Shown: positions 7,693-27,852, numbered from the stretch's first letter. The stretch: DNA of 32,000 bases from Geotalea daltonii FRC-32 (GCF_000022265.1 NC_011979.1:2760001-2792000); one strand, 5' to 3'. Notes: generated by a model not told the origin, from the sequence alone. Numbers and translations are program-made.

Positions 7693-8949
7693 ATGATGGC
7701 GGCAAATCTCAAGGAACTGGTCCAGCGCTACAAGGCGGACCCGGAGTCGGTCTATAACACCTGGTTTATCGATAACGAGGCACGGATGAAGGCGTTTCGG
7801 TCCATCCGGCGCGGCGTGACGGAGGTGATTGAGGCTATTAAAGCCGGAACATTCGGCAATGATTTCAAAGGCTCACCATTGGAGTTCGTCCTCACCTGCA
7901 TCACCGAGCAAAAGCAGGTCTTCGAGGGGGCCGCGCACCCGTTCTATTGGAAACCAAAACTGCGCATTCCCGACATCTACGAGAACGAGGAGAACAAGGC
8001 CGCCTTCGGCCGCTTCCTGGAAAGCTGCCTGTCCTGCTCCACTGCCGATCGCATCATCCGCGAAATCCTCACCCTCGACGACTGCCGCATCAAGGGACTC
8101 GGCCCCGCCGTCGCCAACATCCTCTACTTTCTCCATCCGACCCACATGCCCCCCTTTAACACAGCCATGCTTAATGGCTTTAATACCCTCTTTGCCGACA
8201 AGAAACCCCTCGGCTCCTGGACTGCCTATCTGGAGATGCGCGAGGCGATTATTCACGCCAATGAAGAACTGCAGCCTGCGCTCTCGAAGGACCTGGGGGC
8301 GATCTCCGGGTTGCTCTTTGATGTGGGGGTAGGCAAGATCGCCTTGGCAGGTAATTTCCAGACGGCGCTGGAGTTTGACCGGGCAAAGCTTGAGAAGGCG
8401 CTAAAGAAGCGACATGACGATGTGCGCAAGGCCCAGGAAGAGGAAAATTCCCATCTGGAGATGCAGTTTACCCTGACACGAATGGGGCGTGACCTTGGTT
8501 ATGACGTGTGGGTGGCCGCCAACGACCGGACCCGCAGCTTGGCAGGCATTAGCCTGCAGTCGCTGACCCTGCCGGAGCTGCCGCTGCTGGAGATGGCGTC
8601 CGAGACCCTCAAGACGGTATCCCTGATCGACGTCATCTGGATAAACCGACTGAGCCGCCAGATCGAGTGTGCCTTCGAGATCGAGAAGAGCACTTCCATT
8701 TACTCAGGAATGCTGCGGCTGCTCGATCTGGCCTCGTCCTTGGGGGACCGGAAGTACGACTTCTTCCTCGTCGCGCCGGATAACCGGGAAAAGGAGATCC
8801 TTGCCCAACTGCAACGGCCTGCCTTTCGTAATCTCGGGAGTGTGGCGTTCCGGTATCTGCTCTTTTCTGATGTTTCCTGTAACTGTGAGGCGATGGGAAG
8901 GTTTGGGGATGATTGGCGGGTTTTGTTGAAGGTGGCGCGGGGGGAATAA
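7693..8949 (+). CDS. Hypothetical protein with a C-terminal PD-(D/E)xK restriction-endonuclease-like domain and an N-terminal HhH-like region
   Basis: 418 aa. The C-terminal part reads E(MQF)..GYDVWVAAND..IDVIW..x12..AFEIEKST..YSGMLRLLDL, a D...ExK arrangement. The N-terminal part contains IKGLGPAVANILYFLHP, resembling helix-hairpin-helix segments of OGG-fold/DNA-binding proteins. No methyltransferase gene is adjacent. Confidence 0.6.
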   Translation: MMAANLKELVQRYKADPESVYNTWFIDNEARMKAFRSIRRGVTEVIEAIKAGTFGNDFKGSPLEFVLTCITEQKQVFEGAAHPFYWKPKLRIPDIYENEENKAAFGRFLESCLSCSTADRIIREILTLDDCRIKGLGPAVANILYFLHPTHMPPFNTAMLNGFNTLFADKKPLGSWTAYLEMREAIIHANEELQPALSKDLGAISGLLFDVGVGKIALAGNFQTALEFDRAKLEKALKKRHDDVRKAQEEENSHLEMQFTLTRMGRDLGYDVWVAANDRTRSLAGISLQSLTLPELPLLEMASETLKTVSLIDVIWINRLSRQIECAFEIEKSTSIYSGMLRLLDLASSLGDRKYDFFLVAPDNREKEILAQLQRPAFRNLGSVAFRYLLFSDVSCNCEAMGRFGDDWRVLLKVARGE

Positions 8950-8961
8950 CCGGAGTTGTAT

Positions 8962-8981
8962 TTATAGCAAAAAAGCTATAA
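8962..8981. promoter_or_regulatory. Palindrome upstream of the toxin stub/antitoxin pair (possible TA operator)
   Basis: TTATAGC-aaaaaa-GCTATAA has 7-bp arms and lies 14 nt upstream of ATG 8995, with GAGGTG as the RBS. Confidence 0.35.
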
Positions 8982-8994
8982 GATTGAGGTGCCG

Positions 8995-9075
8995 ATGAAA
9001 TGGTACGTTGAATTTTTGAATGGTGAAGTCGAGAGCGAGTTTCTCTCTCTTCCGAAGGACATGCAGGCGCGGTGA
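8995..9075 (+). pseudogene. HigB/Gp49-like (RelE superfamily) toxin stub, 26 codons
   Basis: MKWYVEFLNGEVESEFLSLPKDMQAR* matches the N-terminus typical of Gp49/DUF891 toxins (MKW.VEFL....E...LP.DM.AR), which are normally ~100-110 aa. The reading frame stops at 9073-9075, 2 nt before the antitoxin ATG. Confidence 0.65.
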
Positions 9076-9077
9076 AC

Positions 9078-9410
9078 ATGGGAAGAAAATTGAATCAAGT
9101 CAAGCAGGAGCTGATGGCGGATGAGGAATTCAGACGGGAATACGATGCGCTGGAGGAGGAATTCTCAGTTGCTGCGCAGTTAATAGAAGCCCGGACGAAG
9201 GCAAACCTGACGCAGGAACAGGTGGCCCGGCGGATGGGGACGACGCAGTCAGTGGTGGCGCGGTTGGAATCGGGTCATCCATTGCCGAGTCTTCGGACGC
9301 TGCGCAAGTATGCATCTGCGGTAGGGAGCAGGGTGGAGATACGGTTGGTGGGGAAGCAGGTGAATGCCGTACATGAGTCGGCGGAGGGATACGGCGCCGA
9401 CGGCAACTGA
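9078..9410 (+). CDS. XRE-family helix-turn-helix antitoxin (HigA-like)
   Basis: 110 aa. The HTH reads LTQEQVARRMGTTQSVVARLESG. The gene sits downstream of the Gp49-like stub. The last ~13 codons are supplied by the dispersed repeat at 9369-9404. Confidence 0.8.
   Translation: MGRKLNQVKQELMADEEFRREYDALEEEFSVAAQLIEARTKANLTQEQVARRMGTTQSVVARLESGHPLPSLRTLRKYASAVGSRVEIRLVGKQVNAVHESAEGYGADGN
9369..9404. repeat. 36-nt dispersed repeat, copy 2
   Basis: GTACATGAGTCGGCGGAGGgatacGGCgCCGACGGC matches 3410-3445 at 32/36 positions and lies inside the 3' end of the antitoxin ORF. Confidence 0.7.
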
Positions 9411-9503
9411 AACCGATGGTTTAACTGTAAGAAGGGTTTAGCTTCGAGAATGGCAGAAAGGTAACCTGACACCGTTGTTTTCCCCTTGACTTTACTTATC
9501 ATG

Positions 9504-9537
9504 GATGTCCCCAGAATTCTGATGTCCCCGGAATTCT
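9504..9537. repeat. 2 x 17-bp tandem direct repeat
   Basis: GATGTCCCCAGAATTCT (9504-9520) is followed by GATGTCCCCGGAATTCT (9521-9537). ATGTCCCC recurs at 9750-9757. Confidence 0.85.
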
Positions 9538-9578
9538 CTTTGGGATGGGCAACTTCTTGCTATTAGCCGGTTTAAATG

Positions 9579-9607
9579 TTGACACAGGAACGGGAAGGGC
9601 GTACTAA
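9579..9607 (+). promoter_or_regulatory. Possible sigma70-type promoter ahead of the GHKL-nuclease gene
   Basis: TTGACA (9579-9584), a 17-nt spacer, then TACTAA (9602-9607). Confidence 0.3.
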
Positions 9608-9826
9608 ATCAACTATTATTAAGTTGTTTTGTTTATTCCCGGAGGATGGGATGGAATCCATTTTGGGTTATGTCGATTGGGAAGAACGCTTAAGTAAACT
9701 TCGGGCTGATGAACGTGCTTTTTGTTGATAGGAACAATTAATCCCTACCATGTCCCCCTCGGAATATTGAACAGTGGCCGTCGGAGAAATCTGACAGCAG
9801 AAGATACAGCCTATTTCGGAGCCCTT

Positions 9827-11848
9827 ATGAAAAACCTAGATGTTCTTATCACGACCCCCGGAATCAAAAAAACATTAAAGGGAATGACTGTCGAGAAGGC
9901 TATAGCTGAGTATATATGGAATGGATTTGATGCTAGTGCAACTAGTATTGAATTAGAATACCACACTAATGAGTTCGGTGCGGTTACTGAGATATCAGTA
10001 AAAGACAATGGCTATGGTGTTCAGTATGAAAATCTTGATAATAAGTTTGGCGTATTTATGTTCTCTGAAAAAGAAGCCCTCCACACAGGCAAACGCTTTT
10101 TATCAGGCATAAGAGGTAAAAGAGGCGTTGGTCGTCTGTCATTTTTTCACTTCTCACGGCACGCTAAATGGGAAACAACTTACCAAACAAAAACAGGAAA
10201 GTTGCACTTCGATATAAATGTCACTTCAGATAATTTGGTAAAGTACGCTGCATCACCAATTGAACCAACTAATGATGGCATAGGAACTAAAGTTGTTTTG
10301 CAGGAGGTAAGTGACGTATACGATACTTCGTTTAAAGAGGAAATAATACCTTATCTGTGTAAAGAATTTTGTTGGTATTTGAAGTTAAACAAACAATATT
10401 CAATAAAGGTCAATGGTGTGGAAATAGATTATTCTAAGTTAATAGCTGAAGAAGATAGTGCTTCTTTCATATTTGACGAATCAAAAACATTGTTTTCTAT
10501 AGATTACGTCCGTTGGTCAGAAAAACCAAATGATGAATACTCTCGTTATTATTGTAAATCTTTGAATGAAGAGGAAAAGCTCACCAATCCAACAACATTA
10601 AACAATAAGGGCGATGAATTTCATCACAGTGTATATATTACGAGCAGCTTCTTCGAAAAGTTTGCACCTGTAAGAACAGATGGTGAGGATCAAGTTAGTT
10701 TTGAGTTCAGCAACAATATGAGCAGTCCAGAATTTAGATATATCATGTCCGAAGTATCAGACTTTTTGAGAAAAAAACGAAAACCCTTTCTCAAAAAATA
10801 TACTGATAAACTCATTGCTGATTATGAACAAGAAGGTGTTCTACCCAAGCTAAAAAATGCGAATGATTGGGAAGTAGTGAAGCATAAAGTTCTCGAAGAC
10901 ACCATCCGAGAATTGTATCAGGTCCAACCAAGGATATTTACTAGACAGAATGTGATTCAAAAAAAGGTCTTTGTCAGGTTTCTGGAACTATTAATGGATA
11001 GCCATGAATTTGAAAGGGTCTTTGATATTATAAAGGAGGTTGTAGAGCTTGAACCAACTGAACGAAAGCAACTTGCAGAGATATTAAAGACCTCAAGATT
11101 GTCTTCTGTAATACGAACGATTGAGCTTATTCACAACCGATATAAAGCAGTGTCGGGGTTAAAAAAATTAGTATTTGACGAAGATCTTAAAGCTAAAGAG
11201 GTCCCACATATACAAATTTTTATGGAAAATAATTATTGGTTAATCGGAGAACAGTACAATATTATCACTGCTGCTGAACCGACATTTGAGGAAGCGCTTA
11301 GAAGATATAACTATCTTCTTACAAAGGAAGATAAAAAAATTAAGATCAATCACCCAAACAAGAATTGTCAAATGGACCTTTTCCTTATCAGGCAAGATTA
11401 CGACGGCGACATTATAAAGAATGTTGTCTTGGAGCTTAAGCACCCAAATGTAAGACTAGGTAAAAAACAACTCGATCAGATTGACAAATATTTTGAGGTC
11501 ATATTAAAACAACCTGAATTTAATGCAAGTAACATGACTTGGGAATTTCATTTGATCGGGAATAGATTGGATGCAAGTGAATACATAGAGAGACAATATA
11601 AAAATGCGTCACTTCATGGAGAAAGATGCTTAGTTTATAAAGATGATAGATATAAGATATACGTAAAAACTTGGAGTGAAATATTCAACACTTTTGAACT
11701 TAGGCACAAATTCCTGAATGACAGACTGGAAATAGCACGAGATACGGTAGCGCGAGATACAATAGGTAAAAATGCAGATGACATAGTAAAAACTGCAAGC
11801 ATGAACCTTGTACCGATGGAGTCTAGTGTCTTTATTGCTACTGCCTAA
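9827..11848 (+). CDS. GHKL (Bergerat-fold) ATPase fused to a C-terminal Shedu/DUF4263-like PD-(D/E)xK nuclease domain
   Basis: The GHKL motifs are an N-box AEYIWNGFDASA, G1 DNGYG, G2 GKRGVGRLSFF and G3 GIGTKVVL. The C-terminal part reads HIQIFMENNYWLIGEQY...QMDLFLIRQD...NVVLELKHPNVRLGKKQLDQIDKY, a D...ExK arrangement with a Q..Y tail. The ORF is open from TTG 9722. ATG 9827 is preferred because GGAG lies 5 nt upstream and the AT-rich composition begins there. The gene uses strongly AT-rich codons, unlike its neighbours. Confidence 0.75.
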   Translation: MKNLDVLITTPGIKKTLKGMTVEKAIAEYIWNGFDASATSIELEYHTNEFGAVTEISVKDNGYGVQYENLDNKFGVFMFSEKEALHTGKRFLSGIRGKRGVGRLSFFHFSRHAKWETTYQTKTGKLHFDINVTSDNLVKYAASPIEPTNDGIGTKVVLQEVSDVYDTSFKEEIIPYLCKEFCWYLKLNKQYSIKVNGVEIDYSKLIAEEDSASFIFDESKTLFSIDYVRWSEKPNDEYSRYYCKSLNEEEKLTNPTTLNNKGDEFHHSVYITSSFFEKFAPVRTDGEDQVSFEFSNNMSSPEFRYIMSEVSDFLRKKRKPFLKKYTDKLIADYEQEGVLPKLKNANDWEVVKHKVLEDTIRELYQVQPRIFTRQNVIQKKVFVRFLELLMDSHEFERVFDIIKEVVELEPTERKQLAEILKTSRLSSVIRTIELIHNRYKAVSGLKKLVFDEDLKAKEVPHIQIFMENNYWLIGEQYNIITAAEPTFEEALRRYNYLLTKEDKKIKINHPNKNCQMDLFLIRQDYDGDIIKNVVLELKHPNVRLGKKQLDQIDKYFEVILKQPEFNASNMTWEFHLIGNRLDASEYIERQYKNASLHGERCLVYKDDRYKIYVKTWSEIFNTFELRHKFLNDRLEIARDTVARDTIGKNADDIVKTASMNLVPMESSVFIATA

Positions 11849-14173: not shown

Positions 14174-14419
14174 ATGCGCCGAAAGATTTGCGCCATAGGC
14201 AACAGCCGAGGGGTGTCGCTTCCCAACGAGGCCCTGGAAAAGCTGAAACTGGCGGTGGGATCGGAAGTGGATGTGCAGGTGGATGAGGAACATGGACGGA
14301 TCGTGATTGAACCGGTCAAAGCGGCGTCTTATGCGGAAGGGGGGGATGAAGCCTTTGCCTCTCAGGTCAATGATTTCATCGAGCAGTACAAACCGGCGTT
14401 GAAAAAGCTCGCCGAATGA
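14174..14419 (+). CDS. AbrB/MazE/SpoVT-family antitoxin (Phd-type partner of Doc)
   Basis: 81 aa. It reads ICAIGNSRGVSLPNEALEKLKLAVGSEVDVQVDEEHGRIVIEPV, a swapped-hairpin AbrB fold signature. The RBS is AAAGGAG. Its stop overlaps the ATG of the Doc stub. Confidence 0.8.
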   Translation: MRRKICAIGNSRGVSLPNEALEKLKLAVGSEVDVQVDEEHGRIVIEPVKAASYAEGGDEAFASQVNDFIEQYKPALKKLAE

Positions 14420-14584: not shown

Positions 14585-14613
14585 TTGACATGAATAACTT
14601 CTTAAACTACTAT
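14585..14613 (+). promoter_or_regulatory. Sigma70-type promoter of the Rrf2 gene
   Basis: TTGACA (14585-14590), a 17-nt spacer, then TACTAT (14608-14613), 31 nt upstream of the TTG start. Confidence 0.45.
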
Positions 14614-14644
14614 TCCTACAAATTTAGTCATAAAAGGCCATCCT

Positions 14645-15049
14645 TTGAAACTCACCTCCCGAAGCGAATATGCACTTCTGGCACTTATCTATCTGGCCCG
14701 TACCGGCAGCGAAAATCTTGTCCCCGTCCAGACCATTGCCACCGCCCAAGGCATTCCCCCAAAGTTTCTCGAACAGATTCTCCTGATCCTGAAACGGGCC
14801 AAGTTCCTCCGCAGCCTGCGGGGGCAGGCGGGGGGCTATGCCCTGGCCAGACCTGCAAGCCAGATCCATCTTGCCGAGGTGATCAGGCTCTTCGATGGGG
14901 CGCTGGCTCCCACGGAGTCGGTAAGTGTCTACTTTTACGAATCGACCCCAATTGAGAAAGAGCAGAAACTCATTTCCGTATTTAAGGATATCCGGGACTA
15001 CGTTGCCGGAAAGCTGGAGAACACCACCCTGGCTGACGTGAGCGAATGA
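14645..15049 (+). CDS. Rrf2-family transcriptional regulator without cysteines (CymR-like rather than IscR-like)
   Basis: 134 aa. It reads MKLTSRSEYALLALIYLAR...IPPKFLEQILLILKRAKFLRSLRGQAGGYALAR, a winged-HTH of the Rrf2 family. The whole protein contains no Cys, so it cannot bind an Fe-S cluster the IscR/NsrR way. The start codon is TTG. Confidence 0.85.
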   Translation: MKLTSRSEYALLALIYLARTGSENLVPVQTIATAQGIPPKFLEQILLILKRAKFLRSLRGQAGGYALARPASQIHLAEVIRLFDGALAPTESVSVYFYESTPIEKEQKLISVFKDIRDYVAGKLENTTLADVSE

Positions 15050-15236
15050 AACGGTTCTTTTTTGCCCTGGCTGTGCCAATCAGCGGGCTTGCTTGTGCGG
15101 CGTGCAGATGTACGCCGCCGCGCAATCCCTTTATTTCCTTGCCAGAACAAAAAAATCCTCGTTTCAGAAGGTAAAGAAGAGAAACTTTTTTTGTACATTA
15201 ATACGACAAAACCGGTAGGAAAAGGAGGAAAAGCAA

Positions 15237-16022
15237 ATGGTGACAAGTATCACGATTATCGGCGGCAAAGGCAAGAATGGAGCGGCAGAGGCGGTGGAGA
15301 GGCTGGAGTTGAAAATGGGGGATGTGGTCAGCATTGTCGGCCCGACCGGATCGGGGAAGACCACGTTGATAAATGACCTGGAGCTGTTCGCCGATGGCAG
15401 CACTCCTACGGGCCGCCGGGTGCTCATCAACGGTGCCTTGCCGGAGGCTGAGTATCGCCATGACCCCTCCCGCAATCCCATTGCCCTGATTACCCAGCAC
15501 ACTACCTTTCTCTCCGATCTTCCCGTAAAGGAATTTCTCAGTACCCATGCCCGTATCCGCAGTACCGACGGCATAGAGGGAGAGCAGATCGTTGCCGAGA
15601 CCCTGGACTTTGCCAACCAGCTTACCGGCGAGGCCATTGCCCTGGACAGCCGCATGACCGAGCTTTCCGGCGGTCAGACCCGTGCCCTGCTCATTGCCGA
15701 TGCCACCATCATCTGCAATACCCCCATCGTTCTTCTGGACGAGGTGGAAAATGCCGGCATCCACCGTAGCCGCGCCCTGGAGCTGCTGCGCCAGTACCGC
15801 AAGATCTTCATCTTCGTCACCCACGATCCGCGCATTGCCCTGTTATCGGACTATCGCATCGTCATGGAAAAGGGAACGATGACAAAAGTGCTGCATACCG
15901 ACGAACAGGAACAGCGACTTTCCCACCAGGTAAGCCGTCTGGACGACATTCTGTCTGTTTTGCGGGAGAAGATGCGGCTTGGCGAAAACCTGGGTGGATT
16001 GGAACTGGAGGGATTGGCATGA
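15237..16022 (+). CDS. Stand-alone ABC-type ATPase (no cognate permease adjacent)
   Basis: 261 aa. It has Walker A GPTGSGKTT, signature LSGGQTRA, Walker B IVLLDEV and H-loop VTHDP. The RBS is AAGGAGG. Its stop overlaps the next ATG (ATGA at 16019-16022). Confidence 0.85.
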   Translation: MVTSITIIGGKGKNGAAEAVERLELKMGDVVSIVGPTGSGKTTLINDLELFADGSTPTGRRVLINGALPEAEYRHDPSRNPIALITQHTTFLSDLPVKEFLSTHARIRSTDGIEGEQIVAETLDFANQLTGEAIALDSRMTELSGGQTRALLIADATIICNTPIVLLDEVENAGIHRSRALELLRQYRKIFIFVTHDPRIALLSDYRIVMEKGTMTKVLHTDEQEQRLSHQVSRLDDILSVLREKMRLGENLGGLELEGLA

Positions 16023-16741
16023 AACTGGTCATCTGTGCAGGGCCGGCCACCACCGGCAAAACTTCCGTACTACGGCACATGGTTCGTAAGATCCTTGCCG
16101 GTGGACGCAAGGCGGCATTCCTGAAAATCGACGTTCAGTATGCCGATGAGGATCTGGCCCTTGCCGGAGAGTTCGGCATTCCCACGCGCAAGGTTTACTC
16201 GGGGGAACTTTGCCCTGACCACTGCAACGTCATGGTGCTGGGTGACGCCCTGCAGTGGGCGAGGAAGGAAGGATGCCAGGTGCTGCTGGTGGAGACGGCG
16301 GGGCTGTGTCTGCGCTGCTCTCCCTATGTGGAGGGCGCACTGGGCATGATCGTCCTGGAGGCGACCAGCGGCATGAACCTGCCGCTCAAGGTGGGGCCGA
16401 TGCTTTCACTGGCGGACATTGCCGTAGTGACCAAGATCGACAGGGTCTCCCAGGCTGAACGGGAGGTGTTCCGGGCGCGCATCCAGGATGTGGCGCCCTT
16501 GGTTAAGATCCGGGAAGTTCACGCCCTGCACGGCATCGGTATTGATCCTCTCCTTGACTATCTGGATCAGAGCCCGGACGTGCTCTTCAACGGCGACAAT
16601 ACGCCACAGCGCATGCTGCTCCGCGGCAATCCACCGGTGGGGACCTGTACCATCTGTGTCGGCAAGAAAGAAATCGGCTGGCAGTCCCACTTTGGCGTGG
16701 TTCGGCCCCTGGAAAACCAGACCTTCTATCGCGGGGAATGA
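16019..16741 (+). CDS. G3E-family (HypB/UreG/CobW-like) P-loop GTPase, putative metallochaperone
   Basis: 240 aa. It has the P-loop GPATTGKTS, a switch II VETAG followed by LCLRC, and TKID (an NKxD variant). It is start/stop-coupled to both neighbours. Confidence 0.75.
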   Translation: MKLVICAGPATTGKTSVLRHMVRKILAGGRKAAFLKIDVQYADEDLALAGEFGIPTRKVYSGELCPDHCNVMVLGDALQWARKEGCQVLLVETAGLCLRCSPYVEGALGMIVLEATSGMNLPLKVGPMLSLADIAVVTKIDRVSQAEREVFRARIQDVAPLVKIREVHALHGIGIDPLLDYLDQSPDVLFNGDNTPQRMLLRGNPPVGTCTICVGKKEIGWQSHFGVVRPLENQTFYRGE

Positions 16742-17877
16742 TCATGTCAGCACGGATCTATTTCGACAATTCGGCTACCACGCCCCTGGACCCGCAGGTG
16801 CGGCAGGCCATGTCTCCCTTCCTCGATGCCGTCTACGGCAATCCATCCAGCATGCACCGGGAAGGATTGGAGGCGCGTCAGGCGGTCGAATATGCCCGAA
16901 GTCAGGTGGCAGCGCTGCTCGGCGCCAATGGGGATGAGATTATCTTTACGGCCAGCGGTACCGAGGCGTCCAATCTGGCCCTTTGGGGTACGGTGCAGGC
17001 TCAACTGGGTTGCCACGTAATCACCACAACCATTGAACATCCGGCGGTACTCCAGACTTGCCGCGCGCTGGCATCGGCAGGGATCGAAGTCACCCGCCTT
17101 CCGGTAGGGGGCGACGGCATCGTCGATCCGGCAGCCCTTGCGGTAGCACTGCGGCCCACGACCCGACTGGTATCGGTGATGGCTGCCAACAACGTGGTGG
17201 GGACCTTGCAACCCATTGCCGAACTGGCACTCATTACCCGTAACCATGGGGCGGTATTCCACTGCGATGCGGTGCAGGCGGTGGGGAAGATTCCCCTGGA
17301 CATGGGGAGGCTGCCGGTTGACTTGCTCTCCCTTTCCGCCCACAAGTTCCATGGTCCCAAGGGGGTAGGGGCTCTGTACATTCGAAAAGGAGTCAGGCTT
17401 TCGCCCCTTATCCACGGAGGCGGTCAGGAAAAGGGCTTGCGTTCGGCAACGGAGAATGTCGCCGGCATCGTCGGTCTGGGCGCTGCGGCTGCCATCGCCG
17501 CCAATGGCATGTCGGCAGAAACGGCCAGGCTGGTTTGTTTGCGTGACCGCCTTCTAGATCGCCTTCTGCAGCGCATCCCCCAGGCCTACCTGATCGGTCA
17601 CCGCTACCGGCGCCTGCCCGGGCATCTCTGCCTCGGGATAGACGGCAGGGAAGGGGAGACCATCAAGCTCCTCATGGCCTTGGATGACGCAGGCATTGCC
17701 GTCTCCACCGGCAGCGCCTGCAGCGCCAGCCATGGCGGTGAGCCTTCGTACATTCTTTCGGCCATGGGCTACGACCCGCTGCGGGCTCGCGGTTCGCTGC
17801 GCATAACCCTTGGCCGATTCAATACTGAGAAGGAAGTGGATCATTTTATTGATGTCATTGCTGCACAAATAAATTAA
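16738..17877 (+). CDS. nifS: Cysteine desulfurase, NifS/IscS class
   Basis: 379 aa. It has the PLP lysine SAHKFHGPKG and the catalytic Cys loop STGSACSA. ATG 16738 overlaps the GTPase stop, and ATG 16744 is an alternative start. Confidence 0.93.
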   Translation: MIMSARIYFDNSATTPLDPQVRQAMSPFLDAVYGNPSSMHREGLEARQAVEYARSQVAALLGANGDEIIFTASGTEASNLALWGTVQAQLGCHVITTTIEHPAVLQTCRALASAGIEVTRLPVGGDGIVDPAALAVALRPTTRLVSVMAANNVVGTLQPIAELALITRNHGAVFHCDAVQAVGKIPLDMGRLPVDLLSLSAHKFHGPKGVGALYIRKGVRLSPLIHGGGQEKGLRSATENVAGIVGLGAAAAIAANGMSAETARLVCLRDRLLDRLLQRIPQAYLIGHRYRRLPGHLCLGIDGREGETIKLLMALDDAGIAVSTGSACSASHGGEPSYILSAMGYDPLRARGSLRITLGRFNTEKEVDHFIDVIAAQIN

Positions 17878-17896: not shown

Positions 17897-17977
17897 CCAC
17901 GAATGACACGAATAAACACGAATTTGTCAAACCTTGGGGTTTTGTTCTTCATTCGTGGCCATTCGTGCGATTCGTGG
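17897..17977. repeat. Symmetric heptamer array: 3 x CACGAAT then 3 x ATTCGTG
   Basis: CACGAAT occurs at 17898, 17907 and 17917. ATTCGTG occurs at 17951, 17961 and 17970. The spacings of 9 and 10 nt mirror the spacings of 10 and 9 nt around a centre near 17937. Confidence 0.9.
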
Positions 17978-18017: not shown

Positions 18018-18743
18018 ATGAGTGAACCAGTAAAAATGATAGATATAAACGACCTTCCAGGCTTGAACTGTGGGGTCTGCGGTTTTCGTCTCTGCGAGGA
18101 ATTTGCTGCCAGATTGAAAACCGACCCCGGCCTTCTGCCTCGCTGCATTCATCTTTCTGCCAACAGCCATGCGGCCCCCAATTCTCCTGAACAGTCGAAA
18201 ACTGTCCCTCAAAGCTGCGGCGGCTGCCACAGCTTTGTCGATGGCACAACAGCGAAGGTCGATCTGGCGGACGCCCAGTGGACCGATTCCCTGGGGCGGG
18301 AATTCGATTTCTACCTGGAACATTTTCCCGAAGAGCCGGGACCCAGGGAAATCATCATTCCCCATAACCCGATCATTACCCGGGAGATGGAGATTGCCCC
18401 CGGCGACATCCTCATCGGCCGCCCCCTGGGCATGTCCTGCGGATGCCCCATCACTCACTGCGGAGTGGTCAAGGAGGTTGACTTGCGCACCGGCGTCATC
18501 GTCTGGTGCGTGACTGGGCCACTGACCCCAAGGGAAAAAGGCTTCAAGGATATGGGCTATTACATTGCCGAAGGGTACGAGGGGCTGATTGCCAAAAGCA
18601 GGGTGGACCCCAAGATCGGCATGCGTTATTACTTCCAGCCCAGCATGTGCATGCTCCAGTGGCGTCACAGCGGCCTGGTCAATTACCTGAACCGTACGGA
18701 GAGCGGACTGCAGGTCAGGGTAGAAGGGCTGTGGATTGGCTGA
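18018..18743 (+). CDS. Cys-rich protein with an N-terminal RnfB/CODH-type putative Fe-S cluster domain
   Basis: 241 aa. LPGLNCGVCGFRLCEEFAARLKTDPGLLPRC gives a C-x2-C-x4-C-x16-C pattern, as in the Pfam FeS (PF04060) domain. Further Cys clusters are SCGGCH and GMSCGCPITHCG. The RBS is AAAGGAG. Confidence 0.7.
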   Translation: MSEPVKMIDINDLPGLNCGVCGFRLCEEFAARLKTDPGLLPRCIHLSANSHAAPNSPEQSKTVPQSCGGCHSFVDGTTAKVDLADAQWTDSLGREFDFYLEHFPEEPGPREIIIPHNPIITREMEIAPGDILIGRPLGMSCGCPITHCGVVKEVDLRTGVIVWCVTGPLTPREKGFKDMGYYIAEGYEGLIAKSRVDPKIGMRYYFQPSMCMLQWRHSGLVNYLNRTESGLQVRVEGLWIG

Positions 18744-18885: not shown

Positions 18886-18933
18886 TATCAGCTATATTTG
18901 CCTGCCAGGGAGACTGAAAGTGCAAATATAAAA

Positions 18934-18962
18934 TTGACAAGAAAAAGATGTAAGCCTATAAA
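18934..18962 (+). promoter_or_regulatory. Sigma70-type promoter of the GAPDH gene
   Basis: TTGACA (18934-18939), a 17-nt spacer, then TATAAA (18957-18962), in an AT-rich stretch. Confidence 0.45.
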
Positions 18963-18996
18963 GTTGATAGACTTAAAAAAAAGAGTTCTATCATTT

Positions 18997-20031
18997 ATGG
19001 ATAAAATAAATAATAATCAGCGCCCGGTGCGCGTCGCCATCAACGGTTTCGGTCGCATCGGTCGCACTGTTTTGCGCCAGGCCCTAGGGCAACCCCACAT
19101 TCAGATCGTCGCCATCAACGATCTTGCCGATTCGACCATGATCATACACCAGCTCAGGTACGATTCTACCCATGGCGTTTATCCCGGCAATATCGGGCTT
19201 CGGGGCGATGTTATGACCCTTGGTGGAAGTTCAATCCGGCTGTTGCACCAGAGCTCTCCGGCGGATCTGCCCTGGTTCGAGGAGAAGGTGGATGTGGTAA
19301 TCGAGGCGACCGGTCGTTTCACCTCCCGGGCTGCAGCTGCATTACACCTGGGTGCCGGTGCCGGCAGGGTTGTCATTTCTGCACCGTCTGCCGACGCCGA
19401 TCTTATGCTGGTGATGGGGGTTAATGACCGTCTTTTTGATCCCGATCGTCACGTGGTCATCTCCAATGCCTCATGTACCACCAACTGTCTGGCGCCACTC
19501 CTCAAAGTCCTTCATGAATCCTTCGGCATCAAAAAAGCGCTGATGACTACTGTTCATCCCTACACCAACAATCAACCGCTCCACGACGCCCCCCATTCCG
19601 ACCTGCGCCGGGGCAGGGGGGGCGCCCAGTCTATTATTCCCACCACAACAACGGCCATTCAGGCTGTAACACAGGTCATGCCGGAGCTTTCCGGCAGGAT
19701 CGACGGCATGGCCATCCGTGTGCCGACCGCGGCTGTTGCCAACATCGATCTGGTGGCAGAGCTGGAAAGTACGGCCGATACAGCGATGATCAACGCTGCA
19801 TTTGCCAAGGCAGCCAAGGGGCAACTGAAAAATATTCTCGCCATATCCAATGAATCGCAGGTTTCAACCGATTTCCAGGGGTGCAGATATTCTGCTGTTC
19901 TTGATGCACCCTGCACCAGCGTCATTGAAGGGAATCTGATCAAGATCCTGGCCTGGTACGATAACGAGAGCGGTTATTCAAGCCGATTACTCGACCTGAT
20001 CAGGCTGGTCGGCATATCATGCCCATCCTGA
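18997..20031 (+). CDS. gap: Type I glyceraldehyde-3-phosphate dehydrogenase family protein (paralog)
   Basis: It has NGFGRIGR (NAD binding), the catalytic SNASCTTNCLAP, and WYDNESGYS. The start is moved to ATG 18997, because the ORF-track extension from 18898 runs through AT-rich promoter sequence. Confidence 0.88.
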   Translation: MDKINNNQRPVRVAINGFGRIGRTVLRQALGQPHIQIVAINDLADSTMIIHQLRYDSTHGVYPGNIGLRGDVMTLGGSSIRLLHQSSPADLPWFEEKVDVVIEATGRFTSRAAAALHLGAGAGRVVISAPSADADLMLVMGVNDRLFDPDRHVVISNASCTTNCLAPLLKVLHESFGIKKALMTTVHPYTNNQPLHDAPHSDLRRGRGGAQSIIPTTTTAIQAVTQVMPELSGRIDGMAIRVPTAAVANIDLVAELESTADTAMINAAFAKAAKGQLKNILAISNESQVSTDFQGCRYSAVLDAPCTSVIEGNLIKILAWYDNESGYSSRLLDLIRLVGISCPS

Positions 20032-20741: not shown

Positions 20742-21671
20742 ATGGCACGCATTGCGAGTAACCTGACGGAGCTGATCGGCAGAACACCACTTTTGCGACT
20801 CAGTCGCCTTGCCGAAGGCGCTGCTGCTGAAGTGGTGGCCAAACTGGAGTCATTCAACCCCGGAGGAAGCGTTAAGGACCGGATCGGCTTTTCCATGATC
20901 AAGGATGCCGAGGAGAAAGGGCTCATCACCAAGGATACGGTCATTATCGAGCCGACCAGCGGCAATACCGGCATTGCCCTGGCCTTCGTTGCAGCGGCAA
21001 AAGGGTACCGGCTTATCCTGACCATGCCCGACACCATGAGCGTTGAACGGCGGAACCTGCTCAAGGCATACGGTGCTGAACTGGTCCTTACTCCCGGAGC
21101 CAAGGGGATGAAAGGTGCCATTGAAAAAGCCGAGGAACTGGCTGCCGCCACACCCAATTCATTCGTTCCCCAACAGTTCAAAAATGCCGCCAATCCCGCC
21201 ATTCATCGCGCCACTACAGCTGAAGAAATATGGGCGGATACGGACGGCAAGGTGGATATACTGGTTGGTGGCGTAGGCACCGGCGGCACCATCACCGGCA
21301 TCGGCGAAATCATCAAGGGACGCAACTCTGACTTCAAGGTCGTAGCAGTTGAACCCTTCGATTCGCCGGTCCTGTCCGGCGGCGTACCTGGACCCCACAA
21401 GATCCAGGGCATCGGAGCCGGCTTTGTTCCAGGCGTACTCAATACCGGGATCATAGATGAAATTTATAAAGTTAAAAACGAAGAGGCTTTTGAAACTGCT
21501 CGCCGCGTTGCACGGGAAGAGGGTGTTCTGATCGGCATTTCCGGAGGTGCCGCAGCTTTTGCTGCTCTGCAGATTGCCAAAAGACCCGAGAACAAGGGGA
21601 AGCGAATCGTGGTGATCCTGCCTGACACCGGCGAGCGGTATCTGTCGACGGCGCTTTTTCAGGAAGTATAA
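20742..21671 (+). CDS. cysK: Cysteine synthase A (O-acetylserine sulfhydrylase)
   Basis: 309 aa. It has the PLP lysine [11 protein letters not shown], the substrate loop [12 protein letters not shown], and GTGGTITG. Confidence 0.95.
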
Positions 21672-21741: not shown

Positions 21742-21813
21742 AATAAGTACACCATTTAAGTGGCTTATTATTTTTTCACAGAACTACCCAAGATTGACTG
21801 ACCAGAAATACTG

Positions 21814-21866
21814 GAGGTCAAGGATAGGGCGCTTGAAGCGCTTCGTTTCCTTGACCTCTTTTTTTT
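21814..21866 (+). terminator. Strong intrinsic terminator in the cysK-ABC intergenic region (cysK terminator or leader attenuator)
   Basis: GAGGTCAAGGA (21814-21824) pairs with TCCTTGACCTC (21848-21858), with an inner GCGCT-tga-AGCGC hairpin, followed by T8 (21859-21866). It lies 73 nt downstream of the predicted -10 and 54 nt upstream of ATG 21920. Confidence 0.7.
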
Positions 21867-21919
21867 ACCCATTTCTGGCCAATTCTGCTGCGAATCAACC
21901 AAAAAGGACGTGGTTCAAA

Positions 21920-22735
21920 ATGCACGAAATTACCCTGACTAATATTTCATATGCCTATGGGGAACAAACTGTTCTTGAGGATATCAATTTTACTGCGGCA
22001 GCTGGTGAGTTCATCTGTCTGCTGGGGCCTTCTGGATGTGGCAAAAGCACCCTCCTTCGCCTGCTTGCCGGTCTTGCACGGCCAACCACCGGTACCCTGA
22101 CCCTTGATGGAAAACCGATCAATGGACCGGGACTGGACCGTGGGGTGGTCTTTCAGGATTACAGTCTTTTTCCCTGGATGACAGCAGGACAAAATGTCGT
22201 TCTGGCGCTTGAACAGGCTTTTCCAGGGAAATCCAGGGCCAGACTTCGCCAGACGGCCCAGGAGTATCTGGAGATGGTCGGGCTTCGGGATGTCTTCCAT
22301 AAACTGCCTGGGGCACTGTCCGGCGGGATGCGGCAGCGAGCTGCCATTGCCCGGGCTTTTGCCATCAATTCCCCGGTTTTGCTCATGGATGAACCTTTCG
22401 GCGCCCTTGACGCCATTACCCGTGCCCGGCTGCAGGACTTGCTGCTTCAACTGTGGCAGCAGAACACTGCCGAACGCAAAACCGTCTTCTTCGTCACCCA
22501 TGATGTGGAGGAAGCCATTCTCCTGGCCAGCAGGGTCATGGTCATGGGGCTGAATCCCGGTTCGGTGCGCGGTGTCTTTCCGGTGGACATTCCGCGACCG
22601 CGACGGCGCCAGGCACTGTACACCGATCCAGCCTTTCTCACCCTGCGCGACCGTCTGATCAGAGAACTTCATGCGGATGTGCTGGATGAACTGGATGAGG
22701 GACGAACGGTGCGAACGGCAGGGGAAGGTATCTGA
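21920..22735 (+). CDS. ABC transporter ATP-binding protein, NitT/TauT (nitrate/sulfonate/taurine/HMP) family
   Basis: 271 aa from ATG 21920, with an AAGGA RBS. It has Walker A GPSGCGKST, signature LSGGMRQR, Walker B LLMDEPFGALD and H-loop VTHD. The ORF-track extension from 21794 crosses the terminator. Confidence 0.9.
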   Translation: MHEITLTNISYAYGEQTVLEDINFTAAAGEFICLLGPSGCGKSTLLRLLAGLARPTTGTLTLDGKPINGPGLDRGVVFQDYSLFPWMTAGQNVVLALEQAFPGKSRARLRQTAQEYLEMVGLRDVFHKLPGALSGGMRQRAAIARAFAINSPVLLMDEPFGALDAITRARLQDLLLQLWQQNTAERKTVFFVTHDVEEAILLASRVMVMGLNPGSVRGVFPVDIPRPRRRQALYTDPAFLTLRDRLIRELHADVLDELDEGRTVRTAGEGI

Positions 22736-22736
22736 G

Positions 22737-23507
22737 ATGGCAGCGAGACGCCATGGAATCAGTGTCCTGCTGCTTATGGCCGTGCTGTTGATTCCTCATA
22801 CCGGGTTTACTGCGGTTAAAAAGCCCATTCGTATCGGTTACCTGGATAATCCTGGTGCCTTATTGGTGGTACAGGCGGCGACATATGGCTTCTATGATGA
22901 GCAAGGGATTAGGGTGATCCTTGTGCCTTTCAGGGATTCGCATAAGGGACTTGCGAAACTGGATCGACGCAAGCTGGATGCAGGGGCGTTTTCAGTCGGT
23001 GAAACACTCAAGAGAATAGCTGCCGGCTCCAGGATCAGCATTATCGCCGGGGGGGGCAGAAACCAGCAGCCGGACCAGCTTGCCGATCTGAAAACTGACG
23101 ATGTAGGGAAAGAATTGAGCCAGGGAATCGTCCTTGCCGTGTCCACCCAGTCGGGCGCTTCCGGCAAAGAGCTGCAGGTCAGGCTGGTAAAGGCCCTTAT
23201 TCTGGCCCATCGAGCCTTGGCCAACAGGACTTCAACCGGCGGTGCCGCAGCTGAAGCGGTCAGCCTCCACCTTGATCCAAACCCGGACTTCTGGAAGCTG
23301 CAGCAGCTCTGGACCTACCATGGGCTGCAGAACGAAACGATGACAAGGGATTTCCTCGCCAACCATGTGAACGAAGAGATCTACTGTGACGCCCTGGATG
23401 AACTGCTTGATGAAGACGGGCGCAAGGACCCGGTGCTGCTGAAGCTGAACAGCAGGGCTGTCTGTGTTCCCGACTGCTGTCCTGCTAAACCCGAAAAAAA
23501 ACGCTGA
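22737..23507 (+). CDS. Divergent, short NMT1/THI5-like periplasmic binding protein paralog (SBP1)
   Basis: 256 aa. It has a signal-like N-terminus (ISVLLLMAVLLIPHTGFTA). KPIRIGYLDNPGALLVVQAATYGFYDEQGIRV..KLDAGAF aligns with the N-lobe of the three downstream SBPs. The C-terminal half is divergent and ends in CVPDCCPAKPEKKR. Confidence 0.6.
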   Translation: MAARRHGISVLLLMAVLLIPHTGFTAVKKPIRIGYLDNPGALLVVQAATYGFYDEQGIRVILVPFRDSHKGLAKLDRRKLDAGAFSVGETLKRIAAGSRISIIAGGGRNQQPDQLADLKTDDVGKELSQGIVLAVSTQSGASGKELQVRLVKALILAHRALANRTSTGGAAAEAVSLHLDPNPDFWKLQQLWTYHGLQNETMTRDFLANHVNEEIYCDALDELLDEDGRKDPVLLKLNSRAVCVPDCCPAKPEKKR

Positions 23508-23523
23508 ATAAGGAGGGTATACG

Positions 23524-24552
23524 ATGAAACGACTGATTCTGTTCGTCCTGTTGCTGACAATGGTCGCAAGCAACGCCATTGCCGGAGGGCTGCCGAAACT
23601 TCGGGTGGGCTATATTCCCGAACCTGCCCATGGGCTGTATTTTGTGGCCAATGAAAAGGGATATTTCAAGGAAGAAGGCGTGGATGTGGAACTCTTCCAA
23701 TTCGGCAGCGCCGCGGAAGGACTGGCTGCCCTCAAGGCGGAAAAACTGGATGTTGGAACCTTCGGCACCACGGCCCCCATTCTTTTCATCAGCAAGGGGA
23801 GCGAGTTTACCTTTATCGGCGGCATGATGATAGGCGGCCAGGCCATTATCACCCGCCCGGAGCGCCTGGCTGAGCTGTCCGGCAAAAATCTCAAGGTCTA
23901 CAAGGGTAAGAAGATCGGCCTGGTGAAACTTTCCACCGGCGACGTCATCTTTAAGGGAGCCCTGAAGAAAGCAGGTATCGATTATAAAAAGGATATCACC
24001 TTTGTCGAGTTGGGAACTGTCGCTTCGGTGGTAGAGGCAGTGAAAAAGGGTGCCGTTGACGCCGGTCTCGTTTATCCCCCCCATTTTTCCCTGGCCGAGA
24101 AGAACTACGGGCTGAAGGTCGCACATTACATCGAGGATTTCTATCCGGATTACACCTGTTGCCGCATCGTCGCCCACACCAAGCAGGTGAATGCCGATCC
24201 GGAAACCTATCGGAAGTTCCTGGCCGCCCTGATTCGCGCCTATCGTTTTTACAAGACCAATCCCGCCGAGACGGTAAAGATCTACGCCAAGGCCCTTAAA
24301 ATCGATGAAGACATCATCCGCAATGAAACCTATGTGAAAAAGGTGGCTGATTCCAATCCCGATCCGCTACGCAAGGGCATCCTGGACTTCTGGCAGCATA
24401 TCCGCGATGCGGGCTACATTGCACAGGACTATCCCTTGGATAAGCATATCAACACCACCATCTATAAGCAGGCCCTTGACGGGGTGATCAGGAAGTCTCC
24501 CAAGGACAAGATCTACAAGCAGATGCTCACCTTTTATAAAAGAAACAACTAG
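23524..24552 (+). CDS. ABC transporter substrate-binding protein, NMT1/THI5-like (SBP2)
   Basis: 342 aa. A signal peptide is followed by LRVGYIPEPAHGLYFVANEKGYFKEEGVDVELFQFGS..KLDVGTFG and the motif YTCCRIVAH. Confidence 0.85.
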   Translation: MKRLILFVLLLTMVASNAIAGGLPKLRVGYIPEPAHGLYFVANEKGYFKEEGVDVELFQFGSAAEGLAALKAEKLDVGTFGTTAPILFISKGSEFTFIGGMMIGGQAIITRPERLAELSGKNLKVYKGKKIGLVKLSTGDVIFKGALKKAGIDYKKDITFVELGTVASVVEAVKKGAVDAGLVYPPHFSLAEKNYGLKVAHYIEDFYPDYTCCRIVAHTKQVNADPETYRKFLAALIRAYRFYKTNPAETVKIYAKALKIDEDIIRNETYVKKVADSNPDPLRKGILDFWQHIRDAGYIAQDYPLDKHINTTIYKQALDGVIRKSPKDKIYKQMLTFYKRNN

Positions 24553-24727
24553 GCGGGGGCGGCCTTCACGCCATCTCGACGCCGTCCTCGTCGTCTCCTT
24601 GTGCGGCGTAGCGTGAGCTACGCCTCCGCGGGACTTCTCCGGGCGACGCCGACCTGGCGCAAATTCCACCCCCGGATGGTAGAACCTCATATTCACATAG
24701 CTGAGTGACAGCAGAAAGAGAGCCAAT

Positions 24728-25777: not shown

Positions 25778-25834
25778 TCAAGCTCTCTTTCCTCATGCCC
25801 TTTGGGGTATGACAAGGAAGGGGAGGGGGAAGCC

Positions 25835-26737: not shown

Positions 26738-26781
26738 GTGTTTACTCAGAAAAACTGATCCAATACACGGAGGTTTTGACA

Positions 26782-27822: not shown

Positions 27823-27852
27823 AAATTGATAGGGAATTGGGGAGTGAACGGG

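Follow-up and report, generated by a model that had tools for sequence, protein, structure and literature searches.

A conserved operon of Geotalea daltonii FRC-32 encoding an ABC ATPase, a G3E GTPase and an FeS protein: a possible metal-sulfur centre assembly system

A stretch of 32,000 nucleotides from Geotalea daltonii FRC-32 (GCF_000022265.1, NC_011979.1:2760001-2792000; hereafter the window) was analyzed around three genes at 15237-17877, which encode an ATP-binding cassette (ABC) ATPase, a G3E GTPase and a NifS-type cysteine desulfurase. The original prediction, made from the sequence alone, had taken this triad for a metallocluster maturation module dedicated to a nitrogenase-like (Nfl) enzyme encoded downstream. 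The data showed that these three genes form the central part of an operon of five genes that stands on its own, and that the invariant core of this operon is the ABC ATPase, the GTPase and a further protein with an N-terminal iron-sulfur motif (the FeS protein), not the ABC ATPase, the GTPase and NifS. The operon most likely builds or loads a metal-sulfur centre. Our favored reading, which we hold tentatively, is that the module is a sulfur-status-regulated system driven by nucleoside triphosphate (NTP) hydrolysis for the assembly of Fe-S or metal-S clusters, with the FeS protein as its scaffold or client. The five genes of the operon are as follows.

14645-15049, plus strand: Rrf2 regulator, first gene of the unit (134 amino acids)
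15237-16022, plus strand: ABC ATPase (261 amino acids)
16019-16741, plus strand: G3E GTPase (240 amino acids)
16738-17877, plus strand: NifS/IscS-type cysteine desulfurase (379 amino acids)
18018-18743, plus strand: FeS protein with N-terminal PF04060 motif (241 amino acids)

The three reading frames of the triad all lie on the plus strand, and the ATGA overlaps described earlier were found at 16019-16022 (ABC/GTPase) and 16738-16741 (GTPase/NifS). The 4-bp ABC/GTPase overlap recurred in 68 of 76 related loci from many phyla, in 67 of these 68 as ATGA, and is therefore not due to chance. The GTPase/NifS junction was overlapping or abutting in most NifS-bearing loci. A strong Shine-Dalgarno sequence, AAAGGAGG, precedes the ABC gene. 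The genes of the triad are thus real, but the unit first proposed was incomplete, because the Rrf2 gene at 14645-15049 and the FeS protein gene at 18018-18743 had been overlooked.

The distribution of the operon was examined by scanning one genome per species, which gave 440 stretches encoding close GTPase relatives; the best 80 loci were analyzed with up to 10 kb of flanking sequence on each side. Tallied from the record titles, these loci belonged to Chloroflexota (31 loci), Planctomycetota (19 loci), Verrucomicrobiota (8 loci), Omnitrophota (6 loci), Desulfobacterota (5 loci), Armatimonadota (3 loci), Acidobacteriota (2 loci), Pseudomonadota (2 loci), Actinomycetota (1 locus) and Bdellovibrionota (1 locus), and 2 loci were unclassified. 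The ABC gene was directly upstream of the GTPase gene in 72 of 72 evaluable loci (median identity 73%), and the FeS protein gene was downstream of it in 65 of 65 (median identity 64% overall). Of 65 evaluable loci, 46 (71%) had a NifS gene placed between those for the GTPase and the FeS protein (median identity 65%), and an Rrf2 gene was found upstream in 43 of 66 (65%; median identity 71%). The FeS protein is a more constant partner than NifS, which is a frequent but dispensable member. A CysK-family gene was present within 10 kb in 18 of the 80 loci, often right after the FeS protein gene, and CysK is a frequent companion of the module, not a core member. Unbiased clustering of the 1,171 flanking open reading frames (ORFs) revealed no recurrent neighbor beyond Rrf2, ABC, GTPase, NifS, FeS protein and CysK, and two look-ups, of an Anaerolineae and a Verrucomicrobiia contig, showed the same operon amid unrelated genes.

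The GTPase was 76-90% identical (about 80%) across the 10 phyla, and 99% identical to that of Geotalea toluenoxydans. Fourfold degenerate sites were 18-51% identical, that is, saturated, and GC content at third codon positions (GC3, 0.33-0.92) tracked that of the host; these data indicate an old divergence under very strong purifying selection. Recent horizontal spread was rejected as the cause of the 80% identity on the same two grounds. When a library clustered at 50% identity was searched, only 363 representatives, many of them fragments, matched the GTPase at E ≤ 0.001, and the family formed one tight cluster with a few remote subfamilies at 30-41% identity.

We then related the operon to the genes downstream of it, which are listed below.

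18898-20031, plus strand: GAPDH paralogue, followed by a gene for a NifX-like protein and then by CysK
20742-21671, plus strand: CysK (O-acetylserine sulfhydrylase; TIGR01139, 479.5 bits against a cutoff of 351)
21794-28608, plus strand: NitT/TauT-type ABC importer with its own ATPase, several binding proteins and two permeases
28621-29970, plus strand: QueG/reductive dehalogenase-like protein (449 amino acids), directly upstream of NflD
30003-31532, plus strand: NifD-like gene, about 12 kb downstream of the triad, followed by the start of a NifK-like gene

The statement that the triad lies upstream of a nitrogenase-like enzyme was thus borne out, on the same strand. Beyond the window (L094, 10001-17413), NflK, a corrinoid protein, two URO-D-family methyltransferases and a RACo-type activator were found, and the gene content downstream of the module matched the published pattern of type-1 MGC and Mar-like methyl-sulfur clusters (PMC10418091, PMC13474568). 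A GTPase is mentioned neither in the NFL review (PMC13474568) nor in the MGC preprint (PMC10418091) nor in the Mar preprint, and Rrf2 is mentioned in neither of the two preprints (Mar; MGC, PMC10418091). The GAPDH paralogue, whose best matches include ArsJ-associated GAPDH, accompanies NflDK both in the window and in L100 (15691-16746).

A private cluster assembly or insertion pathway for this Nfl enzyme, replacing the NifB/NifEN route, would account for the position of the operon some 12 kb ahead of NflDK and for the fact that it precedes NflDK in L006 and in L100 (GTPase 94% identical) as well, in L100 with a shared operator. The presence of a paralogous GTPase-ABC pair beside NifH/D/K-like genes in two contigs is in line with such a role, and so is the lack of a NifB radical S-adenosylmethionine (SAM) gene within the window or in the next 6 kb; no NifH-like gene was found in those 6 kb. 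However, a NifD-like gene was located within 10 kb in only 1 of the 80 loci (L006, a Desulfuromonadaceae relative), so that 79 of 80 loci, from 10 phyla, carried the module with no NifD-like gene at that distance, and no Nfl gene recurred among the neighbors. Wide occurrence of the triad apart from Nfl genes was just what the original prediction had said would speak against it, whereas the hydrogenase or urease genes that it named as other possible neighbors did not recur in the 80 loci. The trio is also carried on phage contigs and next to sufBCD, the paralogous pair has a FecBCD-type importer and an SBP_bac_6 protein as its constant partners even where Nfl genes are missing, and the known Mar-type enzymes obtain their clusters from NifB or MarB (PMC13474568). 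By its distribution, the Nfl-dedicated pathway is close to refuted, and we regard it as very unlikely.

The link to Nfl is confined to one lineage, the relatives of Geobacter. Because L100 has a strong operator site, the neighborhood of the operon and the Nfl genes in these bacteria is attributed to a shared regulon; this site points to co-regulation under one sulfur-responsive regulon, not to dedicated maturation. The operon heads a sulfur-scavenging Nfl island in Geobacter relatives only, apparently through the shared Rrf2 operator. Thus, one part of the earlier idea was retained, since a desulfurase, a metallochaperone GTPase and a soluble ABC ATPase acting on a metal-sulfur centre fit the data, but its restriction to Nfl was not. 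For the Nfl/Mar field, this removes a tempting but wrong candidate for cluster maturation, and the Nfl island of Geobacter relatives apparently belongs to an Rrf2-controlled sulfur regulon.

The ABC ATPase scored 60.4 bits against PF00005 (cutoff 25) and contained, as had been predicted, all the motifs of a nucleotide-binding domain (NBD), namely Walker A GPTGSGKTT (amino acids 35-43), Q-loop ITQHT (85-89), signature LSGGQ (143-147), Walker B IVLLDE (164-169) and H-loop VTHD (194-197). With this score and all five motifs located, it is an ABC-type NBD. The only deviation was the atypical D-loop, which reads ENAGI and not SALD. The protein is built as a single NBD with a helical C-terminal tail. 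Only generic ABC matches were obtained, with no specific NCBIfam or Pfam family; SufC was not among the best 25 NCBIfam matches, and the protein was not assigned to SufC or the SUF system. It was 23% identical to SufC, in comparison with 39-42% to the ABC partners of distant GTPase relatives. These distant partners share the D-loop DE(V/I)ENAGI and the tail with the ABC ATPase of the window and are its orthologues. The original prediction had noted that no permease or binding protein lies next to the gene; indeed, the nearest one starts at 22671, within the importer that has its own ATPase (21794-22735). No permease or binding protein recurred in the 80 neighborhoods, and the protein was not classed with ABC transporters. 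The ABC ATPase is a soluble, non-transporter protein. A defence-system identity was rejected, as PADLOC matched neither the GTPase nor the FeS protein and gave only generic ABC-like matches to the ATPase.

The GTPase belongs to the G3E superfamily (PF02492, 39.4 bits against a cutoff of 20.7), and contained the P-loop GPATTGKTS, CPDHC, ETAGLCLRC (with ETAG) and TKID. Its AlphaFold2 model had a predicted confidence score (pLDDT) of 86, and the top Foldseek matches of the model were HypB (2hf8, 2wsm, 4lps) and UreG (4hi0, 5xkt), with E about 1e-10 and template modeling scores (TM) up to 0.76. The HypB/UreG-like layout with Cys residues after switch II was therefore correctly recognized in the earlier reading. 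The residues C65-P-D-H68, E92, G95-L-C97-x-R-C100 and the C-terminal P206...C210-x-x-C213 were invariant even in remote relatives, and in alignment C65-P-D-H68 and C97/C100 appear to fall at the metal-site positions of HypB ('CH...C') and UreG ('CPH'). The profile hidden Markov model classification that had been suggested supported the G3E assignment but none of the named subfamilies. HypB was the best named NCBIfam match, but the score was 47.2 bits against a cutoff of 121.2 (TIGR00073), and no hyp or hydrogenase gene recurred in the 80 neighborhoods. The UreG score was 17.7 bits against a cutoff of 204.2 (TIGR00101), with no ure genes nearby, and the MeaB score was far below the equivalog cutoff. 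An assignment to COG0523/CobW/ZNG1 was not supported, with no CxCC in the sequence and no CobW_C Pfam match, and COG0523 structures were not among the top structural matches. The GTPase is a distinct HypB/UreG-like clade of the G3E superfamily, one for which neither NCBIfam nor Pfam has a family of its own and for which there is no solved structure.

The complete catalytic motifs of the ABC_tran domain, the HypB match (47 bits) and the HypB/UreG fold could be taken to describe two ordinary proteins, an importer ATPase whose permease is encoded elsewhere and a standard nickel insertase for hydrogenase or urease. The context data already contradict this explanation, which we consider highly improbable: the 80 neighborhoods have neither permease or binding protein genes nor hyp or ure genes as recurrent members, the tau-like importer of the window has its own ATPase, and the ABC ATPase is coupled and sometimes fused to the GTPase and has an atypical D-loop. 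In addition, the GTPase does not come near the cutoff of either HypB (121 bits) or UreG (204 bits) and has an extra C-terminal CxxC tail.

The identity of NifS, named in the original prediction, was supported by the PF00266 score (268.7 bits), the pyridoxal phosphate-binding Lys203 in SAHKF and the catalytic Cys328 in GSACSA, and the protein is a class I (NifS/IscS) cysteine desulfurase. Its TIGR03402 score of 460 bits was below the strict equivalog cutoff of 530.75, and for this reason the enzyme was not assigned to the nitrogenase-type NifS. The spacer between the NifS and FeS protein genes contained the following element.

17898-17976, plus strand: the heptamer CACGAAT in three direct and three inverted copies, folding into a three-helix hairpin

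Six of the eight CACGAAT copies in the window fall in this element, and its RNA was predicted to fold with -37.7 kcal/mol (z = -3.1), with 0 of 200 shuffles as stable. No T-run follows, and thus the hairpin is not a canonical terminator; an RNA stabilizer, a processing site or a protein-binding array are candidate roles.

The FeS protein is made of three parts. Its N-terminus was predicted to form an RnfB/CFeSP-type [4Fe-4S] domain with the invariant residues C18, C21, C26 and C43 (PF04060, 28.4 bits, covering residues 13-35 only), and a variable linker with an invariant CxxC (C67, C70) follows. The C-terminal domain is all-beta, about 155 amino acids long and 79-90% identical across the family, and contains GRPLGMSCGCPITHCG, C164, C211, H217 and several invariant histidines. 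The core kept in the bacterial, remote and phage versions was C143, H147, C211 and H217. When PDB and Pfam were searched by sequence and profile, the N-terminal [4Fe-4S] motif was the only part to find a match (RnfB, CFeSP large subunit), and the C-terminal domain had no Pfam, NCBIfam or PDB sequence match. A profile of the C-terminal domain alone, used to search for fusions, retrieved no protein from outside the family, and no annotated domain other than PF04060 occurred among the matches. The AlphaFold2 model (pLDDT 68, moderate confidence) gave nothing significant against PDB in Foldseek (best E 0.066, TM 0.21), and the non-significant matches were small beta-barrels of the PUA, ASCH or PilZ type.

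Such barrels would suit a module that modifies a macromolecule, for example by thiolation of tRNA or another nucleic acid, with NifS as sulfur donor and the all-beta domain binding the substrate and catalyzing the reaction. Proteins in contact with universal macromolecules typically show such conservation (about 80% identity across phyla, although synonymous sites are saturated), phages carry the trio, and the Rrf2-NifS pairing resembles that in the cymR-yrvO(iscS)-mnmA operon of Bacillus. However, the structural matches were not significant, the module has no PP-loop or radical-SAM domain of the kind found in known thiolation enzymes, NifS is absent from 29% of the loci and from the phage versions, and the relatives of the module occur in metal-handling contexts. 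A role in macromolecule modification is therefore unlikely.

Remote relatives of the GTPase were also investigated. P0286 and P0292 were GTPase-ABC fusion proteins. On L089 (1001-7725), a distant variant, the genes for ABC, GTPase, a 198-amino-acid protein with no Pfam match, FeS protein, SufB, SufC, SufD and ferritin follow each other on one strand. A paralogous GTPase-ABC pair (35-38% identical) was found with an SBP_bac_6 protein beside a FecBCD-type importer on L085 (171-8953), L091 (1510-10226) and L087 (6198-12062); the pair was fused in L085 and L087, and NifH/D/K-like genes were alongside in L085 and L091, which are independent contigs, but not in L087. This variant may be a metal- or tetrapyrrole-handling form of the same engine. 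The third partner was an ArsC-like protein in L093 and a DUF364 protein in L095, DUF364 being the Pfam family 'putative heavy-metal chelation'. The theme common to these relatives is an ABC-G3E two-NTPase engine with a metal-binding partner.

Four contigs in IMG/VR (L101-L104) carried GTPase relatives with an adjacent ABC gene or FeS protein fragment, and the full trio was present on L104 (IMGVR_UViG_3300020814_000008). At 8056-9925 of this contig, which is clearly a phage, the trio comes directly after the portal/adaptor and major head protein (E 2e-36) genes, and its third protein consists of the C-terminal domain only, without the N-terminal [4Fe-4S] domain. L098, which has a phage adaptor match, also carries all three genes. 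The phage versions are without NifS. Phages carry other Fe-S assembly genes too.

The regulator is a member of the Rrf2 family (PF02082, 109 bits; TIGR00738, 114 bits against a cutoff of 73.3). There was no Cys among its 134 amino acids, and of 33 orthologues with at least 60% identity 20 had no Cys; a conserved 3-Cys site was not found. Since it is cysteine-free, it is not a sensor of the IscR, NsrR or RirA type, and its IscR score was 67 bits against a cutoff of 207.55. CymR was the best named NCBIfam match, at 76 bits against an equivalog cutoff of 195. The protein is probably a dedicated repressor of the operon. A conserved motif upstream of ABC genes was used to build a position weight matrix of its operator, which gave two sites at the operon; the maximum in 20 window shuffles was 12.2 bits.

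15199-15225, plus strand: 27-bp operator, consensus ATATATGACTAAnCCnATAGGATAAGt, 12 nt upstream of the ABC start (27.9 bits)
14609-14635, minus strand: operator copy just upstream of Rrf2 (17.8 bits), overlapping a sigma-70-like promoter at 14585-14613

About 45 loci from different phyla had the motif ahead of their ABC gene. Over the 1.13 Mb that the loci span, matches of at least 15 bits were found almost only before ABC (43) and Rrf2 (40), and those before Rrf2 were placed as in the window. Among the exceptions were sites preceding a truncated CysK-like gene (L006), CstB-like genes (L026, L065) and a PstS-like binding protein gene. The CstB-like genes (L026, 18659-20285; L065, 14946-16464) encode about 500 amino acids with, as read by eye, a persulfide dioxygenase and two rhodanese domains; the sites before them would link the regulator to persulfide or sulfide metabolism in Chloroflexota. 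In L100, a strong site (23.7 bits) was located ahead of a block of permease, solute-binding protein, NflDK and GAPDH genes. The window sites at 18951, 20193 and 21675 (GAPDH, NifX-like gene and importer) were weak (10.4-11.6 bits), within the shuffled range, and are suggestive only. The operator contains an ATAGGA half-site that may resemble the CymR box of Bacillus.

The weak site before the GAPDH paralogue lies 20 nt ahead of its probable start at 18997. A further operator-like site in the window, at 88-114, scored 15.1 bits, more than all 20 shuffles; the gene that follows it at a distance of about 360 nt (471-1532) encodes a CorA-type Mg/Co/Ni transporter.

The following mechanism is proposed for a metal-sulfur assembly system. 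The cluster-less Rrf2 would bind the 27-bp operator found before its own gene and before the ABC gene, and would release the operon according to cysteine or sulfur status. Translational coupling would keep the ABC ATPase and the GTPase at a fixed ratio, and the two, fused in some relatives, may form one two-NTPase engine. Judged by the HypB/UreG-like fold and motif, the Cys/His site of the GTPase may carry either a nascent cluster or a metal, namely Fe or possibly Ni or Zn, which GTP hydrolysis would release, while NifS, as expected from its family, would supply persulfide sulfur from cysteine. Assembly of the centre would take place on the FeS protein, at its C-terminal Cys/His domain, with the N-terminal [4Fe-4S] domain as electron source, and the ABC ATPase may drive assembly or release by analogy with SufC in SufBC2D. 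The product would be an Fe-S type cluster, the FeS protein a scaffold or carrier for several clients, and the module an additional Fe-S route that sulfur status turns on. In Geobacter relatives, the operon would have been placed at the head of an island with CysK, a tau-like importer, Mar-like NflDK and corrinoid methyltransferases, as part of a shared regulon and not as an Nfl-specific device.

This reading is based on the invariant trio with no other recurrent neighbor, and on the ATGA coupling together with the GTPase-ABC fusions. The metallochaperone character of the GTPase is deduced from the HypB/UreG fold and the invariant Cys/His residues aligned with the HypB and UreG motifs, and the sulfur-linked regulon from the Cys-free Rrf2 and from the operators before the Rrf2, ABC, CysK-like and CstB-like genes and before the transporter-NflDK block of L100. 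Fe-S assembly or carriage is favored because of the partnership with NifS, the Rrf2 control, the sufBCD-ferritin adjacency, the scaffold-like conservation, the lack of a neighboring client and the carriage by phages; about 80% protein identity with saturated fourfold sites is typical of Fe-S scaffold machinery. A connection with iron and metals is further indicated by the relatives found beside FecBCD-type importers and SBP_bac_6 or with DUF364.

Several observations weigh against assembly as the function. NifS is missing in 29% of the loci, the proteins nearest to the GTPase in structure are handlers of nickel and not of iron, and the SufBCD adjacency comes from a single contig (L089). The FeS protein has no detectable sequence or fold similarity to IscU, NifU, SufB or A-type scaffolds, and a core of only C143, H147, C211 and H217 would also suit a mononuclear metal site in an enzyme. 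The regulator is closer to regulators of cysteine metabolism than to Fe-S sensors, and the module could thus serve sulfur metabolism directly. In the literature, no paper on the module and no characterized member were found.

The main rival reading, possible but doubtful, makes the FeS protein the end product of the module. It would be a redox enzyme or metallo-enzyme in cysteine or sulfur metabolism, with the GTPase inserting its catalytic metal in the manner of HypB/UreG for hydrogenase and urease, and with the ABC ATPase driving insertion or ATP-dependent reductive activation, the role proposed for component A2 with methyl-coenzyme M reductase (MCR). The universal core of 2 Cys and 2 His is typical of a single metal site, the protein has its own [4Fe-4S] domain for electron input, the GTPase is structurally closest to nickel insertases, and no separate client gene is conserved beside the module. 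The regulon and neighbors are sulfur-related (Cys-free Rrf2, CysK, the CstB-like gene, and the tau/Nfl island in Geobacter relatives), and a soluble ABC ATPase in an Fe-S activation complex offers a precedent (PMC12176620). However, the FeS protein has no recognizable catalytic domain, and the extreme conservation of all three proteins and their carriage by phages would be unusual for a peripheral metabolic enzyme. The third partner in paralogous systems is a binding protein (SBP_bac_6, DUF364) and not an enzyme, and the sufBCD-ferritin adjacency points to cluster assembly.

The module was compared with known systems. Its parts come from known superfamilies, but the pairing of ABC with G3E and the third protein have no described counterpart. 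The GTPase shares with HypB and UreG the fold and the P-loop, ExxG and (N/T)KxD motifs, and has Cys/His residues that appear to fall at the position of their metal site. Unlike them, it is always paired with an ABC ATPase and has an extra conserved CxRC after switch II and the C-terminal CxxC tail; it is 18-22% identical to them, scores far below the family cutoffs and has no hyp or ure neighbors. The G3E subfamilies are reportedly four, HypB, UreG, MeaB and COG0523, in the 2009 account of Haas et al., and we know of no described G3E subfamily that is paired with an ABC ATPase.

Like SUF (SufS-SufBC2D), the module combines a cysteine desulfurase and a soluble ABC ATPase with an assembly protein that contains Cys, all in a single operon with a dedicated repressor, and one distant variant is contiguous with sufBCD and ferritin. 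In contrast to SUF, its ABC ATPase is 23% identical to SufC, its desulfurase is class I (NifS/IscS-like) and not SufS, there is no SufB/SufD-type or U-type scaffold, and a GTPase is added. The module was not assigned to NIF, ISC, SUF, MIS or SMS, with no U-type (IscU/NifU/SufU) or SufB-type scaffold domain found in it. The Rrf2 protein resembles CymR of Firmicutes in having none of the three cluster-ligating cysteines and in a regulon with a cysteine desulfurase, CysK and sulfur-acquisition genes, but it scored 76 bits against a cutoff of 195 and occurs in other phyla.

Component A2 of the MCR activation complex has two NBDs in one chain, works with no GTPase and is confined to methanogens and methanotrophic archaea. 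This soluble ABC ATPase was proposed to act with Fe-S proteins (PMC12176620), and the module would be similar in pairing a non-transporter ABC ATPase with an Fe-S protein on a metal centre. The Mar/Isr-type NFL loci and type-1 MGC clusters share CysK, the tau-like importer, NflD/K, the corrinoid protein, the two URO-D methyltransferases and RACo with the region downstream of the operon, but the operon itself is a separate unit and adjoins loci of this kind in Geobacter relatives alone.

If the module is a metal-sulfur assembly system, it would be a new machinery in a field that recognizes only a handful, with a pairing of G3E GTPase and ABC ATPase that is described for no metallocentre pathway, and would provide a concrete candidate for nucleotide-controlled metal delivery into Fe-S assembly. 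A bolder version, which is distinctly doubtful, holds that the trio, usually with NifS, is a previously unrecognized machinery for the biogenesis of Fe-S or mixed-metal-sulfur centres apart from NIF, ISC, SUF, MIS and SMS, in which the GTPase is a nucleotide-gated metal donor, and which has spread through at least 10 phyla and been borrowed by phages. To our knowledge, the role of nucleotide-gated metal donor has never been firmly assigned to a G3E GTPase in Fe-S assembly. Even if the FeS protein is an enzyme, the three proteins are among the most strongly conserved uncharacterized protein sets in anaerobic Chloroflexota, Planctomycetota, Verrucomicrobiota, Omnitrophota and Desulfobacterota, and the family offers a third protein whose fold matches nothing known, as well as a ready regulator-operator pair for experiments.

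Apart from the hairpin at 17898-17976, some minor features of the window were observed. The protein encoded at 28621-29970 belonged to no Pfam family and showed weak similarity to QueG and reductive dehalogenases, which are Fe-S/corrinoid-type enzymes. Just upstream of Rrf2, at 14174-14419, there is a MazE/AbrB-type antitoxin-like ORF (81 amino acids), with no obvious toxin called alongside. A low-GC stretch was found at 7693-11848 (GC 0.35 at 10-12 kb, in comparison with about 0.55 elsewhere). It contains a type II restriction-enzyme-like ORF (7693-8949), a helix-turn-helix protein gene (9072-9410) and a gene for an HATPase_c_3 protein of 708 amino acids (9722-11848), and looks like an acquired restriction or defence island.

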